A stretch of DNA of 64,000 nucleotides from the IMG/VR virus record IMGVR_UViG_3300026382_000013, positions 17,331 to 81,330 of that record, one strand, 5' to 3'. A program made the translations under genes and the position numbers. The stretch is from a virus (lineage: Duplodnaviria; Heunggongvirae; Uroviricota; Caudoviricetes). The notes under the pieces are model-generated. The model saw nothing but the letters and a program-made list of their open reading frames with translations, was not told the DNA's origin and did no database searches. Below are positions 1 through 37,867 of the stretch, one piece after another; position 1 is the stretch's first letter, and every line of letters starts with the position of its first letter.

Positions 1-192
1 AATGAGCAATACCAAGATGAAAGACATGAATATGCTATGAGCACTGACTGGGACTATTGTTTAGATTACATAGGACTTACACCAGAGTCTACTCTATTAG
101 AACTTAACAAAGCTTACAATATATGTAAATCATATGGTTGGGAGCCAACTATTACTGAACTTATTAATTCAGCAGGTATAGGAATATGTTAA
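1..192 (+). CDS. hypothetical protein, 3' fragment (5' part lies outside the window)
   Basis: Open frame from the window edge to TAA at 190-192. Reads as ordinary protein sequence (...GWEPTITELINSAGIGIC*). Confidence 0.4.
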   Translation, partial: NEQYQDERHEYAMSTDWDYCLDYIGLTPESTLLELNKAYNICKSYGWEPTITELINSAGIGIC

Positions 193-270
193 TGTTATTA
201 CACATAATACCTTTTTCACTGATTTAGGTAAATAATTGGTATTTACAATATAAAAACAAGAGAGGAAACA

Positions 271-759
271 ATGACTGAAAAACAATTAATTAAAGAGTTT
301 GAACGTTGGGTAAAAGCAGGAAGACCTAAGATGTGGTATAAAAGAAGTAATGGTAGCTGGGGTTATGTAAGTGGAATACCATCATGGAACAATAAAGACA
401 TCTATATAGTTGATGATGACCATACAGAGCTTAGAAAGCTTCAGATTGACGAACCAGATGCTAAATTTCAGTACTATAATGAAATAGCAAAAGAATGGCA
501 GACTATACAAGATCTTAATTGGGATTTTAATCCAGATGTAAAATACAGATTAAAACCTACTGAATGGTATGAAGATCCAGATATGGTAGGTAAGCCTGTA
601 TGGGTTAGAGATTATAATAATGAAGAATGGGATATAGATATATTAGTGAACTATGCAGATGAAAAAAAATCTCCATTTCGTTGTAAAAGCTGTAGCTGGA
701 CATACGCAAAACCAGTTAAACCTGAAGATTTATATCAAGGAGACAAAGATGGCAAATAG
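271..759 (+). CDS. hypothetical protein (162 aa)
   Basis: ORF with SD-like agagagga 5-6 nt upstream of the ATG. Trp/Tyr-rich, no recognisable motif. Confidence 0.6.
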   Translation: MTEKQLIKEFERWVKAGRPKMWYKRSNGSWGYVSGIPSWNNKDIYIVDDDHTELRKLQIDEPDAKFQYYNEIAKEWQTIQDLNWDFNPDVKYRLKPTEWYEDPDMVGKPVWVRDYNNEEWDIDILVNYADEKKSPFRCKSCSWTYAKPVKPEDLYQGDKDGK

Positions 760-952
760 TATTAATAGGGATGAGATAAGAAAAACTATCTTAAATTATG
801 AAGATAGAAGCCCAAAAGATATTAGACAATATTCTTTTATTGATGTTATGGAAATTGTTGAGAATACATTAATAAATTTGGGTTACTATAAAGATGTTAA
901 TTATCGAAATCTAGATGATATGAAAAGAAGTAATGTTACATGGAAACATTAA
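749..952 (+). CDS. hypothetical protein (67 aa)
   Basis: Internal ATG at 749 preceded by aaggagacaaag. The longer 653 start would overlap the previous gene by ~100 nt. Confidence 0.45.
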   Translation: MANSINRDEIRKTILNYEDRSPKDIRQYSFIDVMEIVENTLINLGYYKDVNYRNLDDMKRSNVTWKH

Positions 953-1033
953 AGGAATGTAAGATGAATTCCACAGATTTAAAATTAAGTATAACAATTA
1001 CGATTTTATCAATAGCAGAATATATAAGCTTAT

Positions 1034-1219
1034 ATGCAGGCTAAGGAGACAAAAATGAACAGGTTTAACGAATATGAACAACAGATTTTAGTAGCACTTC
1101 TGTTTGGGTTAGCAATAGGCGGTGTAGCAGCATCTGCTATATGGGATAACAAATGTGCTCACTATGAACAAGCTATAGAAGAGCATAATATAAAATTAAA
1201 TATTTTAAAAAGAAAATAA
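1034..1219 (+). CDS. small membrane protein (61 aa, one TM)
   Basis: aaggagacaaaaATG. Hydrophobic stretch ILVALLFGLAIGGVAASAIW. Confidence 0.5.
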   Translation: MQAKETKMNRFNEYEQQILVALLFGLAIGGVAASAIWDNKCAHYEQAIEEHNIKLNILKRK

Positions 1220-1220
1220 A

Positions 1221-1541
1221 ATGCTAAAAAAACAATTTAAAAAATATTTAGAAGATGATAGATTATGGCTAGGTGATTATTCAGACCATGGTAAATATTA
1301 TGGGATAGATTATTATCCTGATGATATTGAACTAAAACCATTAAAAGATGAAGTAACTGAATTTTTTAAAAAGTCATTTCCAGATTTTTGTATAGTTAAA
1401 TTTTGTAATTTTGTTAAAAATAAAAATACGATAAGATTTATTGTTGATTATGATTGTAAATGTGAAGGTTTTTTTGAAGGTGTAACATATTATAGCATAC
1501 AAGATATCTATAATGAATTAAATAAAAAGGAGTTTAAATGA
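1221..1541 (+). CDS. hypothetical protein (106 aa)
   Basis: ORF tightly packed with its neighbours; stop overlaps the next start. Confidence 0.5.
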   Translation: MLKKQFKKYLEDDRLWLGDYSDHGKYYGIDYYPDDIELKPLKDEVTEFFKKSFPDFCIVKFCNFVKNKNTIRFIVDYDCKCEGFFEGVTYYSIQDIYNELNKKEFK

Positions 1542-2404
1542 ATGTAAAAATAGCAGGTATTACATATAAGAAACCAGAAGTTTGGTTACTACAAGAAACA
1601 GGTATAGGTACTTGTGAATTAGCCGCTAGAACTGCTTATGACAGTTTTACAAATAGTGAACATAAAGTTATTGCAGAGGATTTTAATAATAAGATTTTTA
1701 ATACTGAAAGTATTAATCAACTTAATAATATTGAATCTAGTAGTTTACTCGATGATCTCACTTGGACTTACTTTCACCATAGTGTGTTAGAACATGCAAA
1801 TCTAACATACCTAATTAAAGGTACTTCAAGAGGGGTACTACAAGAACATGCAAGACACCGTATCCAAGGTATTACTGTTAGAAGTACTCGCTATACTATG
1901 AATCCTGTTATAAATGCATTTATTGCTGAAATGTTGAATAACATTTCAAATACTAATCCATCTGATTGGTTTTATGAGAAATTATTAGAGTTAGATATAT
2001 TTGTTACTACTAATGAAGAGTACAACAGAATTCAAATTGATGATATTTGGAAGAAGTTAAAAAATCAGTATAGTACTTTAGGTAAAGAAACATTCTTAGA
2101 TATTGCTACAACTAAAGATAGTAGAATGTCAATTGGTAATAGACCTAGCAGAGAAACAATTTTTTCAATCCTCCAAGATGGTAAGAAAAAGAGAAATGTT
2201 GGTGATGCATTTAAGCACATAGTTAATGACAACTGGAAAGTTGATATGATTGTTACTATGAATTTACGAGCATACAAGAACTACCTTAAACTACGAAATA
2301 ATGGTGCTGCATGGGTTCAAATTCAATGGTTAGCTGAAGCTATGATGCATGCTACCCCTAGTAAATATCTTAAACTAATATCTAAAAAACATAAGGATAA
2401 CTGA
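1538..2404 (+). CDS. thyX: flavin-dependent thymidylate synthase ThyX
   Basis: ThyX signature RHRx7S present as RHRIQGITVRS, plus HHSVLEHANLTY (HxSVxEH). Confidence 0.8.
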   Translation: MNVKIAGITYKKPEVWLLQETGIGTCELAARTAYDSFTNSEHKVIAEDFNNKIFNTESINQLNNIESSSLLDDLTWTYFHHSVLEHANLTYLIKGTSRGVLQEHARHRIQGITVRSTRYTMNPVINAFIAEMLNNISNTNPSDWFYEKLLELDIFVTTNEEYNRIQIDDIWKKLKNQYSTLGKETFLDIATTKDSRMSIGNRPSRETIFSILQDGKKKRNVGDAFKHIVNDNWKVDMIVTMNLRAYKNYLKLRNNGAAWVQIQWLAEAMMHATPSKYLKLISKKHKDN

Positions 2405-2847
2405 TGAAACTTACAGAAAAACAAAAAGAACTTATTACACATCTTTTTGAGGGTGGTGAAATTGAGTACAGCCAAGCTATTGGGTATAAATTAGATTGTA
2501 TTGGATTAAAAAATGCTACTAATATAACACTTGATGTAACACCAACAACACTATTAAATACTTGTACAATCTATATACATCCGCTACAAAAACGTATTAA
2601 CGAATTAGAAGCAGAACTTGCTAAATTTAAAAATACATCAATTGTAGTTAAACATGATCCACATAAAGAGCATACTCATCTTACAACAGCAGAAGTTAGA
2701 GAGATAGAAGAAGTCTTAACTACAGCTAAAGTAATAGATAAAGAACTCATTATGTCTACATATAATATATCTGTAACAACAATGAATCGTATTATTAAAG
2801 GTACACACTCTAAATCCTCATTAGGTTTTAAGTTCCCTACTAAGTAG
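2404..2847 (+). CDS. hypothetical protein (147 aa)
   Basis: ORF with start overlapping the ThyX stop (ATGA). Confidence 0.5.
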   Translation: MKLTEKQKELITHLFEGGEIEYSQAIGYKLDCIGLKNATNITLDVTPTTLLNTCTIYIHPLQKRINELEAELAKFKNTSIVVKHDPHKEHTHLTTAEVREIEEVLTTAKVIDKELIMSTYNISVTTMNRIIKGTHSKSSLGFKFPTK

Positions 2848-3097
2848 GCTGATTACTATAGTATTAACGTAATTGTAAGACAGTAAAATACTAATCATAA
2901 CGTAACTTTATGGCTCTCCTACACACAAATAGACAATACGAAGCGTTTAGTAAACCCTAGATGGTTGAATATCGTATATGTATAAAACCATCGGAATTCG
3001 TTTAGGACGTTACGCAAAGCACTCGTATAAGAGGAGACTAGCTAATATCCGTAAATTATAATAGTTTTTGGTCTATTATACAACATATAACTCCTTA

Positions 3098-3129
3098 GCT
3101 CATCAGTATTTGCCGATATACTGATGAGC
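3098..3129 (+). terminator. perfect 12-bp stem hairpin (gctcatcagtat / atactgatgagc, 8-nt loop) followed by ATTTCT
   Basis: Inverted repeat read directly from the sequence, 11 nt upstream of tRNA-Met. Could be a terminator or an RNA processing element. Confidence 0.4.
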
Positions 3130-3140
3130 ATTTCTAACTT

Positions 3141-3217
3141 GGGCTGGTAACTCAGCGGTTAGAGTCCTCCGCTCATAACGGAGTGGTCGTTAGGTTCAAA
3201 TCCTACTCAGCCCACCA
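3141..3217 (+). tRNA. tRNA-Met (anticodon CAT; could also be an elongator or lysidine-Ile type), CCA encoded
   Basis: Cloverleaf folded by hand. Acceptor GGGCTGG/TCAGCCC; D-stem ACTC/GAGT; anticodon stem CTCCG/CGGAG with loop CTCATAA; T-loop TTCAAAT; 3' ACCA. Confidence 0.8.
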
Positions 3218-3241
3218 TATAATTTATTTTAAAGGAACTAA

Positions 3242-3640
3242 ATGATACTAGCAAAAGATTTTGCATACCTATATAATGTGTCAATGTCTAACATATATGT
3301 AGCTAAACATACTAATCATGAATTTGTATATAAACAAGGCTCTAAACTGTACGTAGACACTAAACCATTACTAGCTAGACGTAAGCATAGAGATACTGTA
3401 ATTAAAGCCTCACAAGACAATTATGGACTTATTACTTCACATATTAAAGAATACGAATTAGCTAGATTACTTAATAAAGCTTACCCAGATACGTCTTTAA
3501 CTGCATGGAATACATACATGAGAACTTTTGTATTTAGAGTAAAAGAACGAGATTCTACATTAACATACAAAGTACCTAAACAACTATGGAAATTCTATAG
3601 ATTTACAACACATTACATCAAAGAACAAGGATACACTTAA
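3242..3640 (+). CDS. hypothetical protein (132 aa, basic)
   Basis: aaaggaactaaATG. ORF immediately after the tRNA. Confidence 0.5.
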   Translation: MILAKDFAYLYNVSMSNIYVAKHTNHEFVYKQGSKLYVDTKPLLARRKHRDTVIKASQDNYGLITSHIKEYELARLLNKAYPDTSLTAWNTYMRTFVFRVKERDSTLTYKVPKQLWKFYRFTTHYIKEQGYT

Positions 3641-3834
3641 TGGAAGAACTTTTACATAAATGCAGTATATTACCACTACATAAATTACCAGAATTAAAAT
3701 TATCTATTATGTCTTCTAATGGGGACATAAAAATCAAAGAGCAGTTACTTAATGTAATAGATGCAAGATTAACTGTATCTGGGGCATTAAAAGATGCTAT
3801 AGTAGAAACAGCTGAATTTGAATTGGAGAATTAA
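3640..3834 (+). CDS. hypothetical protein (64 aa)
   Basis: ORF with overlapped ATGA start. Confidence 0.45.
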   Translation: MEELLHKCSILPLHKLPELKLSIMSSNGDIKIKEQLLNVIDARLTVSGALKDAIVETAEFELEN

Positions 3835-4161
3835 ATGCAATGGATTCAAGATAATAAGGAATACCTAAAGTAAGGCTTAGAGGTTCTTAAAGAAACTAGA
3901 TATCCTTCTAAAGCCTTTTACATAGTTATACCATCACCACAAACAGCTAATGATTTAAATGCGTTTTTAGACGTTTACCTTTTTAAACCTGCTATAGGAG
4001 GTGAGCCTACAAAAAATTATAGCTTTTTACATAACTTTAATTATACAGACGTTACGGAAGAAGATTATCAATACTGCCCAACTTCTATTGTAAACAAAGC
4101 TAAAAAACTTAAAAAAGAAGCCACAGCAAATAGTACTCTACCTATACTAGCATCAAATGAT
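3835..4161 (+). other. coding-like open frame continuous with 4162-4656, starting at an SD+ATG at 3835 but broken by an in-frame TAA at 3871-3873
   Basis: ggagaattaaATG at 3835. 12 codons, TAA, then 96 stop-free codons in the same frame running into the 4162 ATG. No ATG/GTG/TTG in that stretch. Confidence 0.5.
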
Positions 4162-4656
4162 ATGGCATTAAAAGCAGTAGAAGCTTATTGTAAAGCTAAT
4201 AAGATACCTTCTGAAGATGCATTTAGGATGCTTACTAAATTTACAGAAATATACTCTAATATGGAGTACGGGGCTAAATATGCTGATATGTTTAACAGCA
4301 TAATTAAAAAGCCTTCGGATAAACTTTTAAAATTATTAGTAAAAATTTCTACTGGTATACGAAAAAAATCTACAAGTGATATGTATAATGCATGGGGAAC
4401 TTGTAAGGTATCCCCATATGAAACTATTGTAAATTACAATAATAATAGACTTTCAGTATCTTTAATAAATTTACCTAAAAAACGTAAATTACATATTGGA
4501 CACTTAAAAGGATTAGTGTGGGTGTACTTAGCTAAAGATGATAAGTATAAACCATACTGTTTACACTACTTAAAAAGTAATGACACAACTAAAATACAAA
4601 CTGAACTATTAGAGCTTCAACAAAATATTACACAATTACTAAAGGAATTAAAATGA
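4162..4656 (+). CDS. hypothetical protein (164 aa as called; possibly the C-terminal part of a 273-aa product)
   Basis: ORF track entry; see the 3835-4161 entry. Confidence 0.6.
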   Translation: MALKAVEAYCKANKIPSEDAFRMLTKFTEIYSNMEYGAKYADMFNSIIKKPSDKLLKLLVKISTGIRKKSTSDMYNAWGTCKVSPYETIVNYNNNRLSVSLINLPKKRKLHIGHLKGLVWVYLAKDDKYKPYCLHYLKSNDTTKIQTELLELQQNITQLLKELK

Positions 4657-5831
4657 CAGAAAAAGAAATCTACGTTATAAAAAATAACATTTCACAGCAA
4701 CTTAAATCTAAAGAAGTAGCTCCACTTATTATCGCAGGTAAACCAGGTACAGCTAAATCATCTACTATTAAATTACTTGCTAAAGAGTTAGATATGCATT
4801 TATTAGATGTATCATGTCCAACACTAACTATCGAGTATTTATCTGGGCTACCTGAAGAGTACCGTACACCAGAATTTGATAAATTTAATGTAATGAATGT
4901 AGATACTTTCTCTACTAAATGGTCTGTACCTGAACTTATAGCTAATGCTAATACATTATCAGAAACAAAACCTACTATCCTACTATTAGACGACTTTCAT
5001 ATGGTGCAACCTCACTTACAAGCATACTTCTTTAAATTACTTTTAGAACGTATGATTGGTAATTATAAATTAGCTGACAATGTTGTTATCATAGGTACTA
5101 TGAATGATTCTGAAGAAGCTGGTATGAATCAAATTAATTCAGCAGTACGTAACAGACTTGCTATTTTACCTATTGAATTTAATTTTGAGCATTGGTTTGA
5201 AGGCTATGGTAAATTCCTTCATTATCTAGTAGCATCATTTCTTAAAACTAAAGAATCTTATATTTCTGAAGATGAGTCTACAGGTATTGAAGGTTACGCT
5301 ACAGCTAGAGCTTGGAGTGCTATTGCAGCAGAACTTAAAGGAATTCCATATGAGTTATTACCAACATACGCTCCTATGATTGTTAAAACTCAAGTAGGCA
5401 AAGAAGCAGCAGAAGCATTTACTAAACATTTACTATATATCAATGCTGTAGATTTTAAAGCAATAGTAGAATCTAAAACTATCATTAACATTTCTAAGTT
5501 AGATCCACTAGAAGCAGTTATACATAGTTACATCCCAAATTTTATTAACACTGTAAGTGATGGTATCTTCTTTTTAAATCTATTAGATGCGAACCATAAA
5601 GAGGAAGCATTTATTGGATTTACTATAGCAGAAATATACAATAAATATATTTCAGAAACTAGTGAGGAGTTGACAGATGGATTAAATTTTATAATTAATA
5701 CTATAGTACAGAAACCTTTTTCTAAAGATAACTATGATACTATTACGCCTAAGGAAGTTAAAGCGATTAAAGAGCTTAAACTCAAACATCAAGATGTAAT
5801 TATGAGTATTGCATCAACATACTTAATATAA
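4653..5831 (+). CDS. AAA+ ATPase, MoxR/CobS-like
   Basis: Walker A GKPGTAKS, Walker B LLLDDFH, sensor-like VVIIGTMND. Paired with the vWA gene downstream. Confidence 0.7.
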   Translation: MTEKEIYVIKNNISQQLKSKEVAPLIIAGKPGTAKSSTIKLLAKELDMHLLDVSCPTLTIEYLSGLPEEYRTPEFDKFNVMNVDTFSTKWSVPELIANANTLSETKPTILLLDDFHMVQPHLQAYFFKLLLERMIGNYKLADNVVIIGTMNDSEEAGMNQINSAVRNRLAILPIEFNFEHWFEGYGKFLHYLVASFLKTKESYISEDESTGIEGYATARAWSAIAAELKGIPYELLPTYAPMIVKTQVGKEAAEAFTKHLLYINAVDFKAIVESKTIINISKLDPLEAVIHSYIPNFINTVSDGIFFLNLLDANHKEEAFIGFTIAEIYNKYISETSEELTDGLNFIINTIVQKPFSKDNYDTITPKEVKAIKELKLKHQDVIMSIASTYLI

Positions 5832-5841
5832 AGGACATATT

Positions 5842-7227
5842 ATGAATAAAAAAGAATTCCTATACGACACTAAACGTCTAGTATACAAAGAAGCTATTAA
5901 AGGCTTAAACCAATCGTTAGGACAATCTAAAACAGCACAAGCATCATTAGGTATGTTAGTTAATGTACCATTAGAGATTGAACTACGTAAAGTAGAGACA
6001 CTACCTAAAATTACTAAAAAGTTTAAATCTCTTGCTAGAAATGCACATATGTATTTAAAGCATGATGAAGGGACTATTGTTTTATCATTCTTCTACACAA
6101 CGGATAGAGAACTACCAAAACTTTATAAGTCTATTGAAAAAAATACACACTACTTTACATACTTATACTTTAGAGAGTTACTTATGTTATCTCGTGGGTA
6201 TAACACGTACGCTTTTTACAAAAAAGCTAAAGCAGTAATTCAGGCTAATTCGTCAATCCCTGTAGAACAATGTCAAGCTGTTATGAATATTGCTTGTTAC
6301 ATCTCTATAACTAACTTCATCTCAGATGTTTATAGTTTAGTTGGGAAATCTAGTGAATTTGAAAAAATCTCTAAATATGAAGCTTATGATTCTTCGTATA
6401 AAAACAAAGATGTCTTTAAAATTTTAAAAGCTATCTTACCTGGTATTACAACTGACTCTTTTGAGGAATTTCACACATGTGAATCAGAATTTGGTGCTAC
6501 AGCTTTTTCAGATAATAAATTAGTTAATGATGAATACGATGCTATCATTACTGATCTAGGAGAATCTGTAGAAACTACTTTCAAATCAACATCTAAAGGT
6601 TCAGCTACAGCTAGTATTTTTGGTACTGAATTTGAAGCTAACACAAAACTTAAAACTGGATGGTTCAAGAAACTAAAGAAAACTTTACAACGTATTGTTT
6701 ACTATCGTACTAATGACTTTGAGTCAACTTGGGGAAGCCTAAATTCAACATACAGACATAAGTTTAAATCTCCTAAAGCACAATACAAATCTACTGAATT
6801 AGAACTTGTATTATCTATTGACCATTCAGGATCTATGGAAATGGAAGAATTAGCACGTATTGCTGGTGTAATTAAAAAACATGGTAAATCTATTGCTAAC
6901 TTAACTATTTTAATCCATGATACTGAAATTACTAAGATATTTACACTTAAACCTTCTGAAATAGATCTTGAAGGTGATGCATTTAAAAAAGCCTTACTAA
7001 CAAGATACAATGCTGGAGGTACATCTCACTATCATGTGTTTAAATGGTTAGTTGAGAATACTACTGATATGTCTAAGCTTTTATATTTATCATACTCAGA
7101 TAATTGTTCAGACATCCCAGAATCTTATGCTAAATTTCCAACATTACGTGATGCCAATATGGTATTCGTTTCAACTATAGACAATCCAGTAAATATCACT
7201 GGAACTACAGACATTACTTTAGAGTAA
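5842..7227 (+). CDS. von Willebrand factor A domain protein (CobT-like partner of the AAA+ ATPase)
   Basis: MIDAS motif DHSGSM (DxSxS) at aa ~317. Gene order AAA+ then vWA. Confidence 0.65.
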   Translation: MNKKEFLYDTKRLVYKEAIKGLNQSLGQSKTAQASLGMLVNVPLEIELRKVETLPKITKKFKSLARNAHMYLKHDEGTIVLSFFYTTDRELPKLYKSIEKNTHYFTYLYFRELLMLSRGYNTYAFYKKAKAVIQANSSIPVEQCQAVMNIACYISITNFISDVYSLVGKSSEFEKISKYEAYDSSYKNKDVFKILKAILPGITTDSFEEFHTCESEFGATAFSDNKLVNDEYDAIITDLGESVETTFKSTSKGSATASIFGTEFEANTKLKTGWFKKLKKTLQRIVYYRTNDFESTWGSLNSTYRHKFKSPKAQYKSTELELVLSIDHSGSMEMEELARIAGVIKKHGKSIANLTILIHDTEITKIFTLKPSEIDLEGDAFKKALLTRYNAGGTSHYHVFKWLVENTTDMSKLLYLSYSDNCSDIPESYAKFPTLRDANMVFVSTIDNPVNITGTTDITLE

Positions 7228-7273
7228 TGCATACCTCACTTTATGTGGGGTAACCCTATTTATAAGGCCTTAC

Positions 7274-7990
7274 ATGGATGAATTTCAATATAAACTAGAA
7301 CTAATAAAAGTAGAATCTCAAAAACTTACAATAAAAAGTATAGAAGATACTATACGAAATACATGTAGATCAGGATCTTACACTTTACCACAAAAATTAG
7401 ACATTAAGTCAGAACTTTATAAATTAAGTATACTCTTGAGATACTATAAACTATTCAATAAAAGATCTGCTAAATCCTTACCTCAACACATAGAAGATCA
7501 TATTATAGGAAGAACAGCATTAGTATTTAATAACACATTTTCTCATAGTATCTATGAACCACTACAAATAACTAAAAAAGAATTTGATGAATTTTTTAAA
7601 TACGCTAATATAATTCAAGTACAGTTAGAAGCAGTGGTAGTTGCTAATTATTCTAGACTAGTTGGAAAAGCTACTAAATTTCTTGATATCATAAATTATA
7701 GTTCTCTCAGCATTAAAACAAAATTTTACTACACTACACCTATAACTATAAAAGGAGAGATACGTAAAATTTCCTCTACATACGCTCTAAATAGTACCTG
7801 TGACCCCATCTCAAATATATCAGCTAAAGCAGTAGAACTTTCTATATATGCTTCTAAACTAAAGCCTACAGAATGTTATTATATAAAGCATCTACTACAG
7901 AATGATATAGGTATTACTAAAATTGATACTTATCAAAATGAGCTAGCTGCTGGTATTAGATATCTAAAAAGGCTACGAAATGCTAACTAA
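7274..7990 (+). CDS. hypothetical protein (238 aa)
   Basis: ORF preceded by a small hairpin (acctcac ttt at gtggggt) at 7238-7256. Confidence 0.5.
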   Translation: MDEFQYKLELIKVESQKLTIKSIEDTIRNTCRSGSYTLPQKLDIKSELYKLSILLRYYKLFNKRSAKSLPQHIEDHIIGRTALVFNNTFSHSIYEPLQITKKEFDEFFKYANIIQVQLEAVVVANYSRLVGKATKFLDIINYSSLSIKTKFYYTTPITIKGEIRKISSTYALNSTCDPISNISAKAVELSIYASKLKPTECYYIKHLLQNDIGITKIDTYQNELAAGIRYLKRLRNAN

Positions 7991-9413
7991 GTCTTATGCA
8001 ATATACGATATAGAGTCACATCTTATTAATGAGTGGGGAGCATACCACACTCAATATATATTCTGTATAGCTGTTAAACGTGTCATAGCTGGTGTAGAAG
8101 AGCCAACAAAAATTTATACACCTAATGCTATTCTAGATGCTGATGGAGACTTTAAACAAGCCTTAGAAGCTATTAATTCATGTGACTATAGAGTTGGCCA
8201 TAACATTACAAGATATGATGATATAGCGATGGAAGAATTAGGTGCTGTATTCACAAATAAACCATTTGATACTTTATTGTACACTCAAGTTATGTACACT
8301 AAAGACCAATTAATGTCTATGGATTATGGTATTGAAAACTTCCCTAAAGACTTATATGGTAACTTCTCACTTAAAGCCTTTGGGTACCGTCTAGGACAAG
8401 AACAAAAACTAGAATTTGAGCAATTTGATAAACTTACAACTGATATGCTGGTATACTGTAAACGTGATGTAGATGTCACGTATAATTTGTTTAAACATAT
8501 TATTAATTCTGATAGGTTACCAAATGCCTATTTAATGCAATTAGAGCACGATACATCTACAATAATATCAATGTTAGAACGTGATGGTTTTTATATGGAT
8601 AAGGATAAAGCTCGTAAACTATCTTTAAAAATGACATTAGAAATGCAAGCTATTCAAAATATGTTAGCTAAAGTATTTAAACCAATGTACTTACCAGAAG
8701 GTAAGCCACAAAAGACTAATAATACTATTAAACGTAAGCTATACATACCAAACACTGCTTATAAAGATTTATGGTACTTAAATTCATATTTCCACTTTAA
8801 GCCATATGGTAAGCCTCTGCGTAAATACAAATCTGGTAAAATAAGACATTTTGGTAAAAGAGCTTTTAAATGGTTTACCACACCTCATACAACAGTTATA
8901 ACAACTAAAGATGGTGAGTTTCAAAACATTAAGCTTACTAAATTTAAAGCTACTGATAAACAAATTATATGGTGGTTTAAAAACCTTTATAACTATACAT
9001 TTACAACCTATACTACAAAAGGTAATATACGTGTAGACAGAGATGTATTAAAAACATTTGATGAGTACTTAAAAACTAATAGAAACTCAATTACTAGATT
9101 TGCTAATTATACTAATGAAGAATTCTCAACAGAACTTGAAGCTATATCTAAACTTATGCGATTCCTTAAACTTAAAAAAGATTTATCACAATTATCTGGT
9201 ACTGATAAATCTCTATTATCAGTTCAAAGATTAGATGGTACTATCACTACCCGTATTAATCAAAATGGTACTGTTACAGGTCGAGTTACATCATCTTCTG
9301 TAAATATGAACCAAATACCTTCATCACAAGAATTTAGAGAATTATTTACAGCACCTATTATGTATACAATACCTGATAAATTATATTATGAGTTAATGGA
9401 AACACTATGTTAG
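7980..9413 (+). CDS. family-A DNA polymerase, N-terminal fragment (3'-5' exonuclease domain through the O-helix region)
   Basis: Exo I YDIES, Exo II VGHNITRYDD, Exo III YCKRD, and TGRVTSSSVNMNQIP (TGRLSSxxPNLQNIP). The frame ends just before motif A. Confidence 0.8.
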   Translation: MLTKSYAIYDIESHLINEWGAYHTQYIFCIAVKRVIAGVEEPTKIYTPNAILDADGDFKQALEAINSCDYRVGHNITRYDDIAMEELGAVFTNKPFDTLLYTQVMYTKDQLMSMDYGIENFPKDLYGNFSLKAFGYRLGQEQKLEFEQFDKLTTDMLVYCKRDVDVTYNLFKHIINSDRLPNAYLMQLEHDTSTIISMLERDGFYMDKDKARKLSLKMTLEMQAIQNMLAKVFKPMYLPEGKPQKTNNTIKRKLYIPNTAYKDLWYLNSYFHFKPYGKPLRKYKSGKIRHFGKRAFKWFTTPHTTVITTKDGEFQNIKLTKFKATDKQIIWWFKNLYNYTFTTYTTKGNIRVDRDVLKTFDEYLKTNRNSITRFANYTNEEFSTELEAISKLMRFLKLKKDLSQLSGTDKSLLSVQRLDGTITTRINQNGTVTGRVTSSSVNMNQIPSSQEFRELFTAPIMYTIPDKLYYELMETLC

Positions 9414-9667
9414 TAGATTTTAAAACTAAAGAAGACCTAATACAAGAATTTGGTATGCATGGATCAATGTACATAAAAACAAAGATAAAAACATTAGAAG
9501 ACATGCAAAGAATATTAGGTAAACGCATAAATGTAGTAGTACATAAAGATAAATACCATAAAGATGTATACATAGTACATGATTGGTACGAATATTCTTT
9601 AGATACTTTAGAAGAGCATTCAAAGCAAGAGGTATTTAATTATGCTTTTAAACATAAACTACTATAA
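9407..9667 (+). CDS. small paralog family member (86 aa, ends ...NYAFKHKLL)
   Basis: ORF inside the polymerase-interrupting element. C-terminus and 30-bp downstream sequence conserved with the 9676 ORF. Confidence 0.4.
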   Translation: MLVDFKTKEDLIQEFGMHGSMYIKTKIKTLEDMQRILGKRINVVVHKDKYHKDVYIVHDWYEYSLDTLEEHSKQEVFNYAFKHKLL

Positions 9668-9675
9668 GGATTGCT

Positions 9676-9945
9676 ATGTATTTACGATTTAAACCGCTAG
9701 AACAAATTAAAAGTGAAGCCTATGCAATAACAGTAAATGGGGATATACAATACATAAAAAATGGTGTGTGTGTACCAAAAAATATGCAATGTATATTCAC
9801 TACTAAGCCTATTAAAGTACATTATAACAGTTCTATTTCATATTTACTTGTAACACCTATCAATTATACTATTCGCAAAGATTTAGTATTAGAAGAAGAT
9901 CAACATTTATACACACAATACATGTTTAAACATAAATTACTATAA
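9676..9945 (+). CDS. small paralog family member (89 aa, ends ...QYMFKHKLL)
   Basis: ataaggattgctATG. N-terminal MxxxFKxxE and C-terminal FKHKLL shared with the 9407 ORF. Confidence 0.45.
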   Translation: MYLRFKPLEQIKSEAYAITVNGDIQYIKNGVCVPKNMQCIFTTKPIKVHYNSSISYLLVTPINYTIRKDLVLEEDQHLYTQYMFKHKLL

Positions 9946-10055
9946 AGGAATCTAATGAAAACCATAACTAAAGATCTATATGAGATATTTTTAGCTAAGC
10001 CTAATATACCTGAAGATCTAAAAAAGGAGTTGACCGATAAAGCCCATGAATCACA

Positions 10056-10880
10056 ATGGGTATTTATTGGGTCCTAACTGATTTCTCAGGACAAGAGAAT
10101 GTTAATTTAGCACACTATTTAAAACCTATAGATAACGGAAACCTTGAAAATGTAATTGAAAATGGCTCTAAAGACAATAGTACAGACCTCCATTCACTAA
10201 ATGCAATAGCATGCGGAGTAAGTAGAAGTGACTCAAAAGCCATATTTTTCGGGCTTTTATACGGTTCATCAGCAACTTTAACTGGTTTCACTATATTAGG
10301 TGACAAACTATATACAGATTACACACAAGACGAATTCGATAAGATGTTTAAAAAACTATCTAAACGAACTATAGAACTTGAAGGTACTAAATACTATCCT
10401 ATCAAAAAAGGGCAATTAGTACTATTCAATGATAAATTAATCATTCAAGCTATATTTGGATTACATGTTCAAACTAAATTACGCAAAAATACTAAAGGTC
10501 TTGAGAAACTTGAGGAACAGTTTAAACAAGAAGCTAAGACTAACGGTTATGTTGAGCTTCCTTTAGGCCGTAAGATATATATAGACTCAGACCACAAAGC
10601 CCTTAATTATTTTAACCAAGGTTTAGGTGGACTTGCTTTTAAAGTCTACTTACGTATATTTTATAATACATTATATAATAAAGGTATTTACATTAATGAG
10701 CATTATAGACTACAAGCTTGTATTTATGATGAGATTGATATAATCGCAGACCCAAATCATGTTGATACTATTGTGCAAGTTATGAATGACACTTACGAAT
10801 TAACATCTAAAGAGCTAGCACTTAATGTCAGATACACGGGAGAAACACTTAAGGGCGTAGATTGGGATTCTTGCCATTAA
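10056..10880 (+). CDS. family-A DNA polymerase, C-terminal fragment (palm motifs A, B, C)
   Basis: Motif A LTDFSGQENVNLAHY, motif B RSDSKAIFFGLLYGSSA (RxxxKxxxFGxxYG), motif C CIYDEIDII. Confidence 0.8.
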   Translation: MGIYWVLTDFSGQENVNLAHYLKPIDNGNLENVIENGSKDNSTDLHSLNAIACGVSRSDSKAIFFGLLYGSSATLTGFTILGDKLYTDYTQDEFDKMFKKLSKRTIELEGTKYYPIKKGQLVLFNDKLIIQAIFGLHVQTKLRKNTKGLEKLEEQFKQEAKTNGYVELPLGRKIYIDSDHKALNYFNQGLGGLAFKVYLRIFYNTLYNKGIYINEHYRLQACIYDEIDIIADPNHVDTIVQVMNDTYELTSKELALNVRYTGETLKGVDWDSCH

Positions 10881-32616: not shown

Positions 32617-32691
32617 TGAGTAGTACCATAGTGGTATTGGGCCAAGCTGTTAACTTGGAAGTCACTGGTTCGAATCCAGTCTACTCAGCCA
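32617..32691 (+). tRNA. tRNA-Asn (GTT), CCA encoded
   Basis: Acceptor TGAGTAG/CTACTCA; anticodon stem CCAAG/CTTGG with loop CTGTTAA; T-arm ACTGG-TTCGAAT-CCAGT; discriminator G; CCA. Confidence 0.8.
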
Positions 32692-32692
32692 T

Positions 32693-32780
32693 GGAAAGTT
32701 GACCGAGTGGTCTATGATATCTGTTTGCTAAACAGACGTAGTTAACTCTACCGTAAGTTCGAATCTTACACTTTCCACCA
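32693..32780 (+). tRNA. tRNA-Ser (GCT), type II with long variable arm, CCA encoded
   Basis: Acceptor GGAAAGT/ACTTTCC; anticodon stem TCTGT/ACAGA with loop TTGCTAA; variable arm GTAG-TTAACT-CTAC; T-arm GTAAG-TTCGAAT-CTTAC. D-stem has one mismatch. Confidence 0.7.
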
Positions 32781-33538: not shown

Positions 33539-36500
33539 CTATTTAAAGATGTTTAATATAGGTATCGTAGTACCACCATCTAATAACCTCATAGCACTAT
33601 CTATTGGGCTAAGTCTGCCACCTAATGTTTGGAATATATTACTATGGAATATACCAGCATCTGGGCTTAATCCTAACTTCTGTGCACTTATATCCATTAA
33701 TACCCTAAATCCATTCTTTCTTAATCTACTGATCTCTACTCTTTGGATGTTACTCCAATACTTATAGAATGCTTCAGGACCAATAGCATCAAGATATTGT
33801 ATAGTCTTACTATTTATTACTTTACTATAGTTGATAAAGTTATCAGTAACTTCTCTTCGCATCTCTTCACTTTCCCTACCATGCTCAATACCATACCAAT
33901 ATAATGCAGCTCTAAAATGGAAGTCACTTTCTTGTGTTACAGCTACCATAAATCTACCTAATTCCGACTTGTTAGTAAGGAATACCGTTTGTATTGCTTG
34001 ATGTAATAAGCTATTTTTACCAGCTACTTTATCTAATTGATCTGTTACAGCTTGTGTAATCGGATTGTTATCTTCTATATCTGCTATATCTTCTACAATA
34101 GCTTGGAACATACCCGCATCCATTAAAGGTTTCAAGGGGTTATGTGCCATTCTATCCTCTATCTCAGCAAGCTTCTTAACATACTTATCTCTTTCCTTAC
34201 CTTCACTACTATGCATCATTCTTATAGCTTGTAGTCTTTCCTTATCATCTATTTTCCATTGTCTTAAACTTTTTCTACTTAACCATAATTTACTCATAGC
34301 CTCCATTGGGCCCATACCTGAGTATACTAAAAATTTAGCATTACTTACTATATTTCCATATATTGTTGATGGCATTTTAACTACGACATTACTTTTAAGT
34401 AGTTGTGCAAAACTCTTTACATAGTGTTCAGCTACCCTAATCTTTCTTTCAGTCTCTTTACTTACTTTAATCCTAGTTTTACCTATACGTTTGATATCCA
34501 TTATACTTGGCTCATTATATGCAAACAATTGATTTATCAAATCTTTTCTTACATACAATACTCTATCTTCTGCATCTGGACCATGCATCTCTCTATTCTT
34601 TTGTCTTATGTAGTCTCTAGCATCTTTAGGTAGTAATGCCCAATACTCTTCAGCTTCAGTTTTTAACCCATACTTGCCTTCATCTTTTAGATCTTCATAA
34701 CCACTTTCATACAGTTTTCTTCTATCCTCTTCATTTAGGTTAAGCTCTTTAGGTTGTATTTTTATATACAGATGTTGTGTATCTTTAAATTGCTCACCAG
34801 ATGTATCTAAATCTTTTGAGTCATCCATAACTATATCTACAAGCTTTCTATTCTGTTCATTAGTAAGTTTCATTGTACCTACTTGACCAAAACTTCTACC
34901 TAACTTCTCAACACCATTAACACTTAATTCTAGGTACTTAATAGCGTCATCTTTACCTATTGGGTATCTAAAGTCTATTATGAAACCTCTATCATTGTAT
35001 ACAGGCTGCATAAGCTCTATGTCACCATCTTGTTCACTATAGCCACTGTTATCTTCATATCTTTCTATAGCTTCATTACGTACTTTAATAAACTTCTTAA
35101 CCATTTGCTTGTCATCAAGTTCAGGAGCTGACATTCTTACTTTGTCACTTAATAGTAACCCTGGTACTGTTCTTCTTTGTAAACTTGCAGCGCCATCTAC
35201 ACGTTTCCCTATACCTGCATTGACATTAACATATACACCATACTCAACATTATCAGTATCATTGTATGCTTCAATTAGATTACGTACTAGTTTGTATCCT
35301 TGTGCTTCCATTTCTTTACGCTTATACACAGGAGCATACTTCATGTCTCTATTGATATGTGTTTTATCCCTTGCCTGGCCTTTAACAAAGTCATGGTATT
35401 CACCAGATTCCTGCATTTCTTCCGCAGTTGCTTCTAACATACCTTTGGCAGTGTCTAAATAAAACTTTACACCATCCGAGTCAATATCTATAAGTTCAGC
35501 TAACTCATTTCTACCTCTAGACATTCTTAAAGCTTCTAATGTGATTAGCTTGTCGATAGCCTCTACGTACACTTCTTCACTACCATCTCTATCTACATCC
35601 CATACATGACCATACATTAATGCTATATTTCTTGCATTAGTTCTTAGACCCTTACCTACAACAAGGTACCTTGCAGCTTCTAGTATATCTCTCATGTACA
35701 TATGTTTTTGGAATGTTGGTAGGTCTTTAAACTCTGTGGCTACTATCTTATTCACTTCTTCATCTATAGCTTTATCACTACTAAGTAACTCTTTAGTTCG
35801 TTTCATCCCAAGACTTCTAGCAACTACTTGTAAGTCTGTACTAAGTGCTGCACTCTCTAAAGCTTCTCTATACTTCTTGTTAGCTAAGGCATTTATATCT
35901 ATCTTTGTAAAAGCTTCTGTTATATCTTGTACTGTACCTTTAAAATTGTGATCTCTAAGCCTATCTACCATACTTCTAAACTGCATTGTCATATCTGTTA
36001 TCTGTACAAGTGTTCTTCTACCTGCCATAAAGTCTGACATAACTGCATGTACAAATGAACCTTCACCTACTCCTAAGTCCATCAGAAGCTTACTTTGAGC
36101 TATAGCTAGACCTTCATCACCTGTTGTATGTTTAAGTGCTTTATTGAGCTTCTTTAGAGTTCTAATTGTTCCCATAGCTTTAATAGCTGACTTGAAGTAA
36201 TTATCTGTACTTTTAGGCTCATACTTATGTAAGTCATCCAGTATCTTTTGGATAATCTTTTCAGTCTCCATACCTCTTTTAGCTTTAATTGCTTCATACA
36301 TCATATTTTGAATAGCTTTAGATTTGTATAGTGCTCTATCTATCATATCTGTACTTACTGATAACTTCTTTAACCACTCATTCTCACTAAGAAGTTTTTT
36401 AATTTCTTCCTCTGTTGCTTTGCTACCTGCTTTTGGTCCTTTTTTACCATCATCCCCATTCATCTTATCTATAGCCCAATTCACTGGTACACTTACTTTA

Positions 36501-37867
36501 GCATCTAGTGTATCTAGTACTTCATCAATCTTACCTACTATCTTCTCATTGATTGGCATGCCTTGTCTTTGAGTAGCTTTACCAGCATATCTATCTTGTA
36601 CTTGTGTTAAAGCATAAACTAACTTTGTACTCTCTTCTAGTAGTGTATCACCTTTTATCTTTTTAGCTTTACCTAGCATAGCTTGAAATGTATTCCAGAA
36701 CCATCTAGTCACTACATCGAGTATAGTCTCATTAGCCTTTTTCTCTTTCATTATCTTTTCAGGAGCTTTCTTGTCTAGTGCTTGCATTAAGGCTTTATTT
36801 GTCATTAGATGGGCCATAAACTCTTGTAGTCTAATACCAGCTAGCTTTTGGTTATATGTATTACTAGCTGTCCCAAAGATATACTCATATCTTTCTTTAG
36901 CCTTATCAATCTCAGCTTCTGTGTACACACCTTCATACTCAGGTAGGAAATCTTCAAATGTAATTACTTTCTGTGCATACTTATATAAGTCTCTAATTTG
37001 TAGTTTTAAGTCAGCACCTGCTGTTGGTATCTTACTATTGAATACCCAATCTAATGCTGCATGCACTGTTTCATGTACTAAAGCTTCTTCATTAGTCATT
37101 GTGAATAAATTCCTAGCTTCTTCTCCTAAGCTACCCCTGATTATACGTATCTTAGCACCTTCAGCAGTTGGGTCAAACATTGCTATTGGTTCTACTATCT
37201 CTTGTACTTTATCTGTTGTTACTTGAATACCAAGTTTTGCTATCTCTTTAGACATCTCCTGAAGCTTCATAGACACTTCTTTAAGTTGTGCACTATGTTC
37301 TGCATCCCAGTCTCCACCTAAAGCTTCTTGGTCAGCTTTCTGCATCTCAGCTTGTATATTCTCTAGTGTACCATCTATCGTATTTGCACTATTAAACATT
37401 TCATTTATTTCTTCATATGTCATGCCATCATTATTATACAACACAGCATCTATGTTGAACTTTCTCAACATCTTAGTCATAGCTTCCTTCGAGTATGTAA
37501 TCTTACTATCTACCCCATCAGGTGTTAATCCATTTCTAGTTACAATAGCATAACCATTTTTACCTTTATCAGTAACATGACTTACTTTATACTTATTTGG
37601 ACCTAACTGCACTACACCTGTAATCTTTACTCTATAGTTCTTATGTCTCGTTCTAGCTTTATGTGTACTAGCATTTCTACTGTAGTACACAGACTGTATT
37701 TGGTACATATCACCAGCCAACTCTTTCTGTACACTTCTAGCTCTATTTCTAGCATCCATTGTAGCCATCTCAATAGCAATATTTGGATCTAGTTGTGGGT
37801 TATCCGCTATAGCTTGTTTTTTAAGCTCATCATTAAGCTCTAGGGTATCTATGTTACATTGTGCCAT
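33539..37867 (-). CDS. giant virion-associated protein (1442 aa), probable internal/ejection protein, with an HExxH motif
   Basis: Last gene of the late operon. LVHETVHAALDW (zincin-like HExxH). The size class matches podovirus internal core proteins. Function inferred. Confidence 0.5.
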   Translation of the reverse strand: MAQCNIDTLELNDELKKQAIADNPQLDPNIAIEMATMDARNRARSVQKELAGDMYQIQSVYYSRNASTHKARTRHKNYRVKITGVVQLGPNKYKVSHVTDKGKNGYAIVTRNGLTPDGVDSKITYSKEAMTKMLRKFNIDAVLYNNDGMTYEEINEMFNSANTIDGTLENIQAEMQKADQEALGGDWDAEHSAQLKEVSMKLQEMSKEIAKLGIQVTTDKVQEIVEPIAMFDPTAEGAKIRIIRGSLGEEARNLFTMTNEEALVHETVHAALDWVFNSKIPTAGADLKLQIRDLYKYAQKVITFEDFLPEYEGVYTEAEIDKAKERYEYIFGTASNTYNQKLAGIRLQEFMAHLMTNKALMQALDKKAPEKIMKEKKANETILDVVTRWFWNTFQAMLGKAKKIKGDTLLEESTKLVYALTQVQDRYAGKATQRQGMPINEKIVGKIDEVLDTLDAKVSVPVNWAIDKMNGDDGKKGPKAGSKATEEEIKKLLSENEWLKKLSVSTDMIDRALYKSKAIQNMMYEAIKAKRGMETEKIIQKILDDLHKYEPKSTDNYFKSAIKAMGTIRTLKKLNKALKHTTGDEGLAIAQSKLLMDLGVGEGSFVHAVMSDFMAGRRTLVQITDMTMQFRSMVDRLRDHNFKGTVQDITEAFTKIDINALANKKYREALESAALSTDLQVVARSLGMKRTKELLSSDKAIDEEVNKIVATEFKDLPTFQKHMYMRDILEAARYLVVGKGLRTNARNIALMYGHVWDVDRDGSEEVYVEAIDKLITLEALRMSRGRNELAELIDIDSDGVKFYLDTAKGMLEATAEEMQESGEYHDFVKGQARDKTHINRDMKYAPVYKRKEMEAQGYKLVRNLIEAYNDTDNVEYGVYVNVNAGIGKRVDGAASLQRRTVPGLLLSDKVRMSAPELDDKQMVKKFIKVRNEAIERYEDNSGYSEQDGDIELMQPVYNDRGFIIDFRYPIGKDDAIKYLELSVNGVEKLGRSFGQVGTMKLTNEQNRKLVDIVMDDSKDLDTSGEQFKDTQHLYIKIQPKELNLNEEDRRKLYESGYEDLKDEGKYGLKTEAEEYWALLPKDARDYIRQKNREMHGPDAEDRVLYVRKDLINQLFAYNEPSIMDIKRIGKTRIKVSKETERKIRVAEHYVKSFAQLLKSNVVVKMPSTIYGNIVSNAKFLVYSGMGPMEAMSKLWLSRKSLRQWKIDDKERLQAIRMMHSSEGKERDKYVKKLAEIEDRMAHNPLKPLMDAGMFQAIVEDIADIEDNNPITQAVTDQLDKVAGKNSLLHQAIQTVFLTNKSELGRFMVAVTQESDFHFRAALYWYGIEHGRESEEMRREVTDNFINYSKVINSKTIQYLDAIGPEAFYKYWSNIQRVEISRLRKNGFRVLMDISAQKLGLSPDAGIFHSNIFQTLGGRLSPIDSAMRLLDGGTTIPILNIFK

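Follow-up and report, generated by a model that had tools for sequence, protein, structure and literature searches.

The window, a 64,000-nt stretch of AT-rich uncultured-phage DNA (29–40% GC), carries a natural ochre allele, probably null or strongly hypomorphic, of a real 273-codon phage gene that segregates with an intact allele. The interrupted gene is located in the early/replication module, between thyX and the block comprising the AAA+ ATPase, vWA and DNA polymerase A genes. The genes from 3242 to 5831 abut or overlap each other (TAATG, TAAATG, ATGA) and look like one early operon; the sole upstream sigma-70-like site (3195–3223, TTCAAA-17-TATAAT) overlaps the 3' end of the tRNA-Met gene, just before the operon that starts at 3242. 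Because the ATPase gene has its own AGGA Shine-Dalgarno sequence, it can be expressed independently of the interrupted gene. The features of the locus are as follows.

1538–2404, plus strand: thyX
Between thyX and tRNA-Met, plus strand: 147-aa ORF
3141–3217, plus strand: tRNA-Met(CAT), inside a 395-nt non-coding gap (window 2848–3241)
3242–3640, plus strand: 132-aa ORF
3640–3834, plus strand: 64-aa ORF, its TAA (3832–3834) abutting the ATG at 3835
3825–3828, plus strand: Shine-Dalgarno sequence GGAG, 6 nt 5' of the ATG at 3835
3835–4656, plus strand: the interrupted frame
3835–3870, plus strand: codons 1–12 (MQWIQDNKEYLK) of the native 273-codon gene, identical to residues 1–12 of the orthologues P0001 and P0004 and aligning with the N-terminus of the distant homologue P0130
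3864–4002 (~140 bp): hypervariable haplotype patch with the TAA at its 5' edge, delimited by SNP clustering against L001
3871–3873, plus strand: premature ochre TAA at codon 13, CAA (Gln) in the orthologues
3874–4161, plus strand: codons 14–109, 96 sense codons homologous to residues 14–109 of the intact orthologue, without a canonical start
4162–4656, plus strand: codons 110–273, equal to the gene-caller's 164-aa ORF (P0002), from the ATG at 4162 to the TGA at 4654–4656
4653–5831, plus strand: AAA+ (MoxR-like) ATPase gene, its ATG at 4653 overlapped by the TGA at 4654–4656
5842–7227, plus strand: gene for a vWA-like protein
Downstream of the vWA-like gene, plus strand: DNA polymerase A pieces, helicases, ribonucleotide reductase and PhoH

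The interrupted frame and its intact orthologues

An earlier note, made from the sequence alone, had described a coding-like frame with its own Shine-Dalgarno sequence and ATG at 3835, an in-frame TAA at 3871–3873, a run of 96 further open codons and the ATG at 4162, and all of these coordinates were confirmed. The codons of the frame add up to 273 (12+1+260). At the local composition, stops account for 8.05% of random codons, and the probability of 96 open codons is 3.2e-4, of the same order as the 1 in 1000 estimated previously. The open frame is real and not a product of chance. The claimed absence of an alternative start also held: there is no in-frame ATG, GTG or TTG in 3874–4161, an absence that has a probability of 0.019 across 96 codons, and none of the in-frame rare-start candidates in this interval (four ATA and one ATT) has a Shine-Dalgarno sequence upstream. 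This start-less leader of 96 codons is the longest among the window ORFs of at least 100 aa.

When the frame was compared with 5.8 billion proteins, its matches belonged to a single cluster, that of P0001, a protein of 273 aa with 95% identity. The N-terminal sequence of P0001 is MQWIQDNKEYLK-Q-GLEVLK..., the Gln corresponding to the window's stop. The cluster has 4 members, two of 273 aa (P0001 on L001 and P0004 on L003) and two of 164 aa, the latter being the window's own call (P0002) and P0003 on L002. The sister loci are syntenic and ~99% identical to the window. In the DNA alignment, the window, L004 and L002 read GAA TAC CTA AAG TAA GGC at the stop, versus GAA TAT TTA AAA CAA GGG in L001 and L003. 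In L006, from a strain that is ~8% divergent, codon 13 is also CAA and the N-terminus of the gene is uninterrupted. Furthermore, homology continues in one frame on both sides of the stop, residues 1–12 being identical to those of P0001 and residues 14–273 being 95% identical.

A more distant phage, L008 (ATPase 62% identical), encodes the 262-aa protein P0130, which can be aligned with P0001 over the whole length, first Met to last Lys, with 29% identity. The segment that BLASTP scored best (residues 67–166, E = 6e-9) spans the ATG at 4162, and the P0130 residue near codon 13 is Thr. Because there are intact 273-aa orthologues as well as this end-to-end homologue, the native gene is, judging from these comparisons, the 273-codon frame starting at the ATG at 3835. 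The window allele evidently is a C-to-T transition at 3871, which changes CAA into the nonsense codon TAA. Nonsense mutation was one of the options listed in the earlier note, and it is borne out by the orthologues, which have CAA (Gln) at codon 13 in L001, L003 and L006 and, where the gene is complete, a continuous 273-aa product. The contrary case, in which orthologues would start at the equivalent of 4162, was not found; homology crosses that ATG.

The earlier note had also remarked that the 64-aa ORF at 3640–3834 is in the same frame. It is indeed in frame with the ATG at 3835, but it does not form one unit with the downstream frame: its own TAA is conserved in all relatives, including L006. 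The ORF is called separately in L001, L003 and L004 and differs from its L001 counterpart by 3 synonymous and 1 non-synonymous change (pN/pS 0.09). By this pattern of conservation, it is a separate conserved gene outside the interrupted frame.

The family is small. No relatives of the gene or of the ATPase were found in IMG/VR or GTDB genomes, and a scan of JGI metagenomes for orthologues returned only L005 and L006. An exhaustive HMMER search of 1.84 billion representatives recovered only the gene's own clade, and a search with P0130 as the query recovered only P0130 itself. More distantly related phages carry different genes in front of the ATPase. Two positional neighbours, a 271-aa AAA protein of L008 and a 166-aa protein of L009, are not homologous to the gene. 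The protein has no above-threshold match in PHROGs, Pfam or NCBIfam, no match in a PDB sequence profile search, and no match among GenBank phages by DNA or protein. AlphaFold2 models had a mean pLDDT of 43 (single sequence) or 40 (5-sequence alignment), a confidence too low to use. The gene is a fast-evolving orphan.

The stop codon and the hypervariable patch

The stop is located at the 5' edge of the patch. Of 113 differences from L001 in 12.8 kb of the window, 17 fall in this patch, which, at 17 SNPs per 150 nt versus a mean of ~1.3, is the top outlier. With L006 as an outgroup, the TAA haplotype has the derived base at each of 3864, 3865, 3870 and 3871. These four substitutions are packed within 8 nt and convert TAT TTA AAA CAA into TAC CTA AAG TAA, three of them being synonymous and one nonsense. 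Such a four-change cluster at the stop is unusually tight and is unexplained by a single point mutation. In the Ga0256828 metagenome, contigs L005 and L006 both end in the patch, at codons 18–22, a sign that the assembly may have been interrupted by strain variation.

L002 (ENA ERZ27262635) shares with the window both the TAA and the alleles of the patch. The two sequences differ at 13 of 1671 positions; at 8 of these, L002 has the L001 allele, on both sides of the patch, and the other 5 are private. Because L002 carries the patch on L001-like flanks, the TAA haplotype has apparently been moved between backgrounds by recombination and is, on this evidence, a real circulating allele; the ENA and JGI assemblies may share reads. 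As far as the assemblies tell, the TAA allele is present on at least two genetic backgrounds in one metagenome series, beside the intact allele. A further assembly, L004 (ENA ERZ27262631), is 100% identical to window 1–10397 and is possibly a reassembly of the same reads.

These observations bear on the possibility, also raised in the earlier note, that the TAA arose by an error of sequencing or assembly and that the true genome has CAA. The difference from the orthologue at the stop amounts to one base, and all sequences involved are metagenome assemblies. However, the window, L004 (identical to it over 10.4 kb) and L002 all have this T within the same 17-SNP block, and L002 otherwise departs from the window at the 13 positions described above and is L001-like on either side of the patch. 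We therefore give an artefact next to no credence.

Several minor features of the sequence variation were recorded. The motif CTAAAG occurs twice in the TAA haplotype, 43 nt apart (3865–3870 and 3908–3913). At window positions 3866–3871 and 3909–3914, L001 reads TAAAAC, and the A-to-G differences at 3870 and 3913 alter both copies alike. This paired change could represent short-tract conversion between quasi-repeats or a coincidence, two haplotypes being compared. Elsewhere, there is a SNP cluster at window 9614–9760 (9 differences from L001 in 150 nt), and in L003 the part matching window 2348–2368, close to the 3' end of thyX, has 6 differences within 21 nt. These two clusters suggest mosaic recombination tracts in other parts of the genome.

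The fate of translation at codon 13

Under the nonsense allele that we favour, translation would start at 3835 and ribosomes would be released at the UAA after a 12-residue peptide, so that the remaining 260 codons would stay essentially untranslated apart from trace near-cognate readthrough. The ATPase would be translated from its own ribosome-binding site. The outcome is predicted to be a null or strongly hypomorphic allele, and the phage would tolerate it because this accessory gene is under weak constraint and dispensable (see below). The mutation would be young compared with the ~1% strain divergence, and the downstream frame would be open still for this reason alone. The 260 codons after the stop contain no further stop or indel in either TAA background; these backgrounds are ~7 substitutions apart over this part, so that the comparison has no power.

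Could the TAA allele still give rise to a working 164-aa protein that lacks the N-terminus, if ribosomes initiate internally or reinitiate at the ATG at 4162? This ATG is the first canonical start after the stop, the ORF that follows is open to 4656, its product has been gene-called in two assemblies (P0002 and P0003), and the most conserved block shared with P0130 lies partly in the 164-aa portion. However, no Shine-Dalgarno sequence is present upstream of the ATG at 4162, versus a comparable AGGA/GGAG motif in 10 of 12 neighbouring genes. No promoter-like site was detected between 3223 and 4304, nor any internal promoter or terminator, and the distance of 288 nt from the stop is too large for termination-reinitiation coupling. 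Moreover, the start codon itself is not maintained, L005 having Ile and P0130 having Phe in place of Met110, and the homology with P0130 crosses the supposed start. We consider a functional product of this kind unlikely. An independent 164-aa gene beginning at 4162 was rejected, its start being neither conserved nor accompanied by a ribosome-binding site. For annotation, the gene-caller's ORF at 4162–4656 is the tail of a disabled 273-codon gene and should be labelled as such.

A different way to rescue the gene would be to decode or skip the UAA at a useful rate, through programmed readthrough, a suppressor tRNA or a tRNA-Lys hop, with complete or nearly complete protein as the result. Upstream and downstream of the stop the reading frame is identical, and in neither TAA background is it otherwise disrupted. 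A hairpin starting at the stop is somewhat stronger in the TAA haplotype (-12.5 versus -10.1 kcal/mol), the CTAAAG repeats could contribute to a hop, the AAG at 3868–3870 could re-pair at the in-frame AAA at 3889–3891 or 3910–3912, and ~11 kb of the 81-kb contig lies outside the sequence scanned for a suppressor tRNA. Against this, the stop is not conserved but confined to the window-type haplotype, with CAA in L001, L003 and L006. The hairpin is not significant (z = -0.9 for 64 nt to -1.4 for 101 nt, inside the spread of shuffled sequences and of the genome background; 7% of all 64-nt windows fold at least as well), and no Rfam family other than tRNA-Met was found in 2700–4800. The next base after the stop is G, a context in which UAA terminates efficiently in bacteria. 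TAA is also the commonest terminator in the window, ending 36 of the 76 ORFs of at least 100 aa, including the gene directly upstream. ARAGORN found no suppressor tRNA in ~70 kb of the 81-kb contig; the window contains only tRNA-Met, tRNA-Asn and tRNA-Ser, and a tRNA-Met was found in the additional 5.8 kb of L004. In the orthologues, the stretch that a hop would skip is coding like the rest of the gene. Thus, the programmed ochre readthrough put forward in the earlier note finds nothing in the locus to sustain it, and decoding or skipping of the stop at a useful rate is highly improbable.

Specific forms of recoding were examined and set aside. Frameshifting would be of no help, since the coding frame does not change across the stop; in the -1 frame, 6 codons follow A-AAG before a stop is reached, and the AAG that could serve for landing at 3911–3913 is out of frame. 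Reassignment of the stop codon was rejected given that TAA is the usual terminator and no suppressor tRNA was found. The window genes are intact under code 11, and the 96-codon start-less leader is unique, with one in-frame TAA in 64 kb; to our knowledge, reassignment of TAA is undescribed in phages. Bypassing of the T4 gene 60 type was rejected on two grounds: the gap encodes QGLEVL... in the orthologues and the take-off AAG is not identical to the in-frame landing AAA, and the peptide made ahead of the stop, 12 residues long, is too short for a nascent-peptide signal of that type.

Comparison with known systems is instructive. Programmed readthrough in the Q-beta coat/A1 gene (UGA) and in MuLV gag-pol (UAG with a pseudoknot) resembles the present case in having an in-frame stop with a coding-looking frame behind it. 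However, in those systems the stop is conserved and both the short and the long products are functional, whereas here the stop is absent from relatives and the short product would have 12 residues. Furthermore, Q-beta and MuLV use UGA or UAG with a leaky context or a stimulatory structure, whereas the window has UAA followed by G and no significant structure. Phages with reassigned stops (TAG to Gln, TGA to Trp) share the alignment of an in-frame stop with a Gln of the relative, but have many affected genes and a suppressor tRNA, as opposed to a single in-frame TAA in 64 kb. T4 gene 60 has a stop immediately after a possible take-off codon, as does the window (AAG), where a weak hairpin starts at the stop and synonymous Lys codons are found in frame 18 and 39 nt downstream. 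Bypassing in gene 60 nevertheless depends on take-off and landing codons that match, on a gap that is non-coding, on a defined stem-loop at the take-off site and on a long signal in the nascent peptide; in the window, the gap is coding in the orthologues, the peptide has 12 residues and the hairpin is not significant.

The four-substitution cluster, the CTAAAG repeat and the hairpin of the TAA haplotype, taken together, would allow a tRNA-Lys hop or UAA readthrough that provides a low, tuned level of (near) full-length protein; we see only a very slim chance of this. If true, the stop would be a naturally polymorphic recoding site. As it stands, nothing points to new translation biology, and the features of the locus are those of an ordinary natural knock-out allele.

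Weak constraint and repeated loss of the gene

Between the window and L001, the interrupted gene has the highest pN (0.026), with lower values for its neighbours, and a pN/pS of 0.54 versus 0.05–0.27 for the ATPase, vWA and polymerase genes. In the last 164 codons, the differences comprise 7 non-synonymous changes and 1 synonymous change. Comparison of L001 with a ~75%-identical lineage gave a dN/dS of ~0.44 for the gene (L005), versus 0.04 for the ATPase and 0.09 for the vWA gene (L007), and a dN/dS of ~1 for codons 18–50 between L001 and L005. The L005 lineage has a disrupted gene too, with two frameshifts: a +2-nt indel near codons 50–60 and a 10-nt deletion near codon 171, the latter also present in the independent contig L007. 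The gene is consequently split over three frames (L005 1–765 and L007 1–405), and gene callers report the pieces as proteins of 40 and 91 aa (P0007 and P0006).

Because the gene evolves fast, has been independently inactivated a second time, belongs to a tiny family and has other genes in its slot in more distant relatives of the phage, the sequence data mark it as a probably dispensable, weakly constrained accessory gene that was inactivated at least twice. Intact, ochre and doubly frameshifted alleles of an orphan early gene coexist in one wild phage population. The ochre allele resembles nonsense alleles and young pseudogenes of non-essential phage genes in its one-base change of CAA to UAA early in the gene, in the intact orthologues, in the undecayed downstream frame of a weakly constrained accessory gene, and in the inactivation of the gene by frameshifts in another lineage. 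It differs from classical ochre mutants, which are laboratory isolates propagated on suppressor hosts, in being found in a wild population on at least two backgrounds and in its position at the edge of a hypervariable haplotype block.

The gene is a reasonable candidate for a function in host interaction or counter-defence. Its repeated loss, through the TAA and through the frameshifts of L005 and L007, may be adaptive, allowing the phage to escape a host defence by which the protein is sensed, and codons 10–56 would then be an arms-race surface; such an escape would fit the hypervariable patch and the repeated losses. Another fast-evolving gene of the same module is the 238-aa ORF at window 7274–7990, which differs from L001 by 12 non-synonymous and 2 synonymous changes (pN/pS 1.65).

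The coding sequence of DNA polymerase A is divided over at least two separate ORFs: the N-terminal part (477 aa) at window 7980–9413, and a 274-aa part at 10056–10880 that matches the C-terminal third of PF00476, with ~640 nt between them taken up by small ORFs. In 9300–10400, Rfam gave no intron match. In L001, a 1082-bp insertion (L001 9480–10561) is located within the C-terminal polymerase ORF, between window positions 10252 and 10257, and contains an Endonuclease_7 ORF and a match, below threshold, to the group I intron family (RF00028, 35 bits, E 7e-7). This insertion looks like a presence/absence polymorphism of an intron with a homing endonuclease.

At a larger scale, GC skew and AT skew switch sign at ~34 kb, and the GC content rises from ~30% to ~37% (window ~33500–64000). 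The genes for tRNA-Asn and tRNA-Ser (32617–32780) lie just ahead of the switch, and a 1442-aa ORF occupies the minus strand at 33539–37867. The switch probably marks the border between the replication module and a divergently transcribed structural module.
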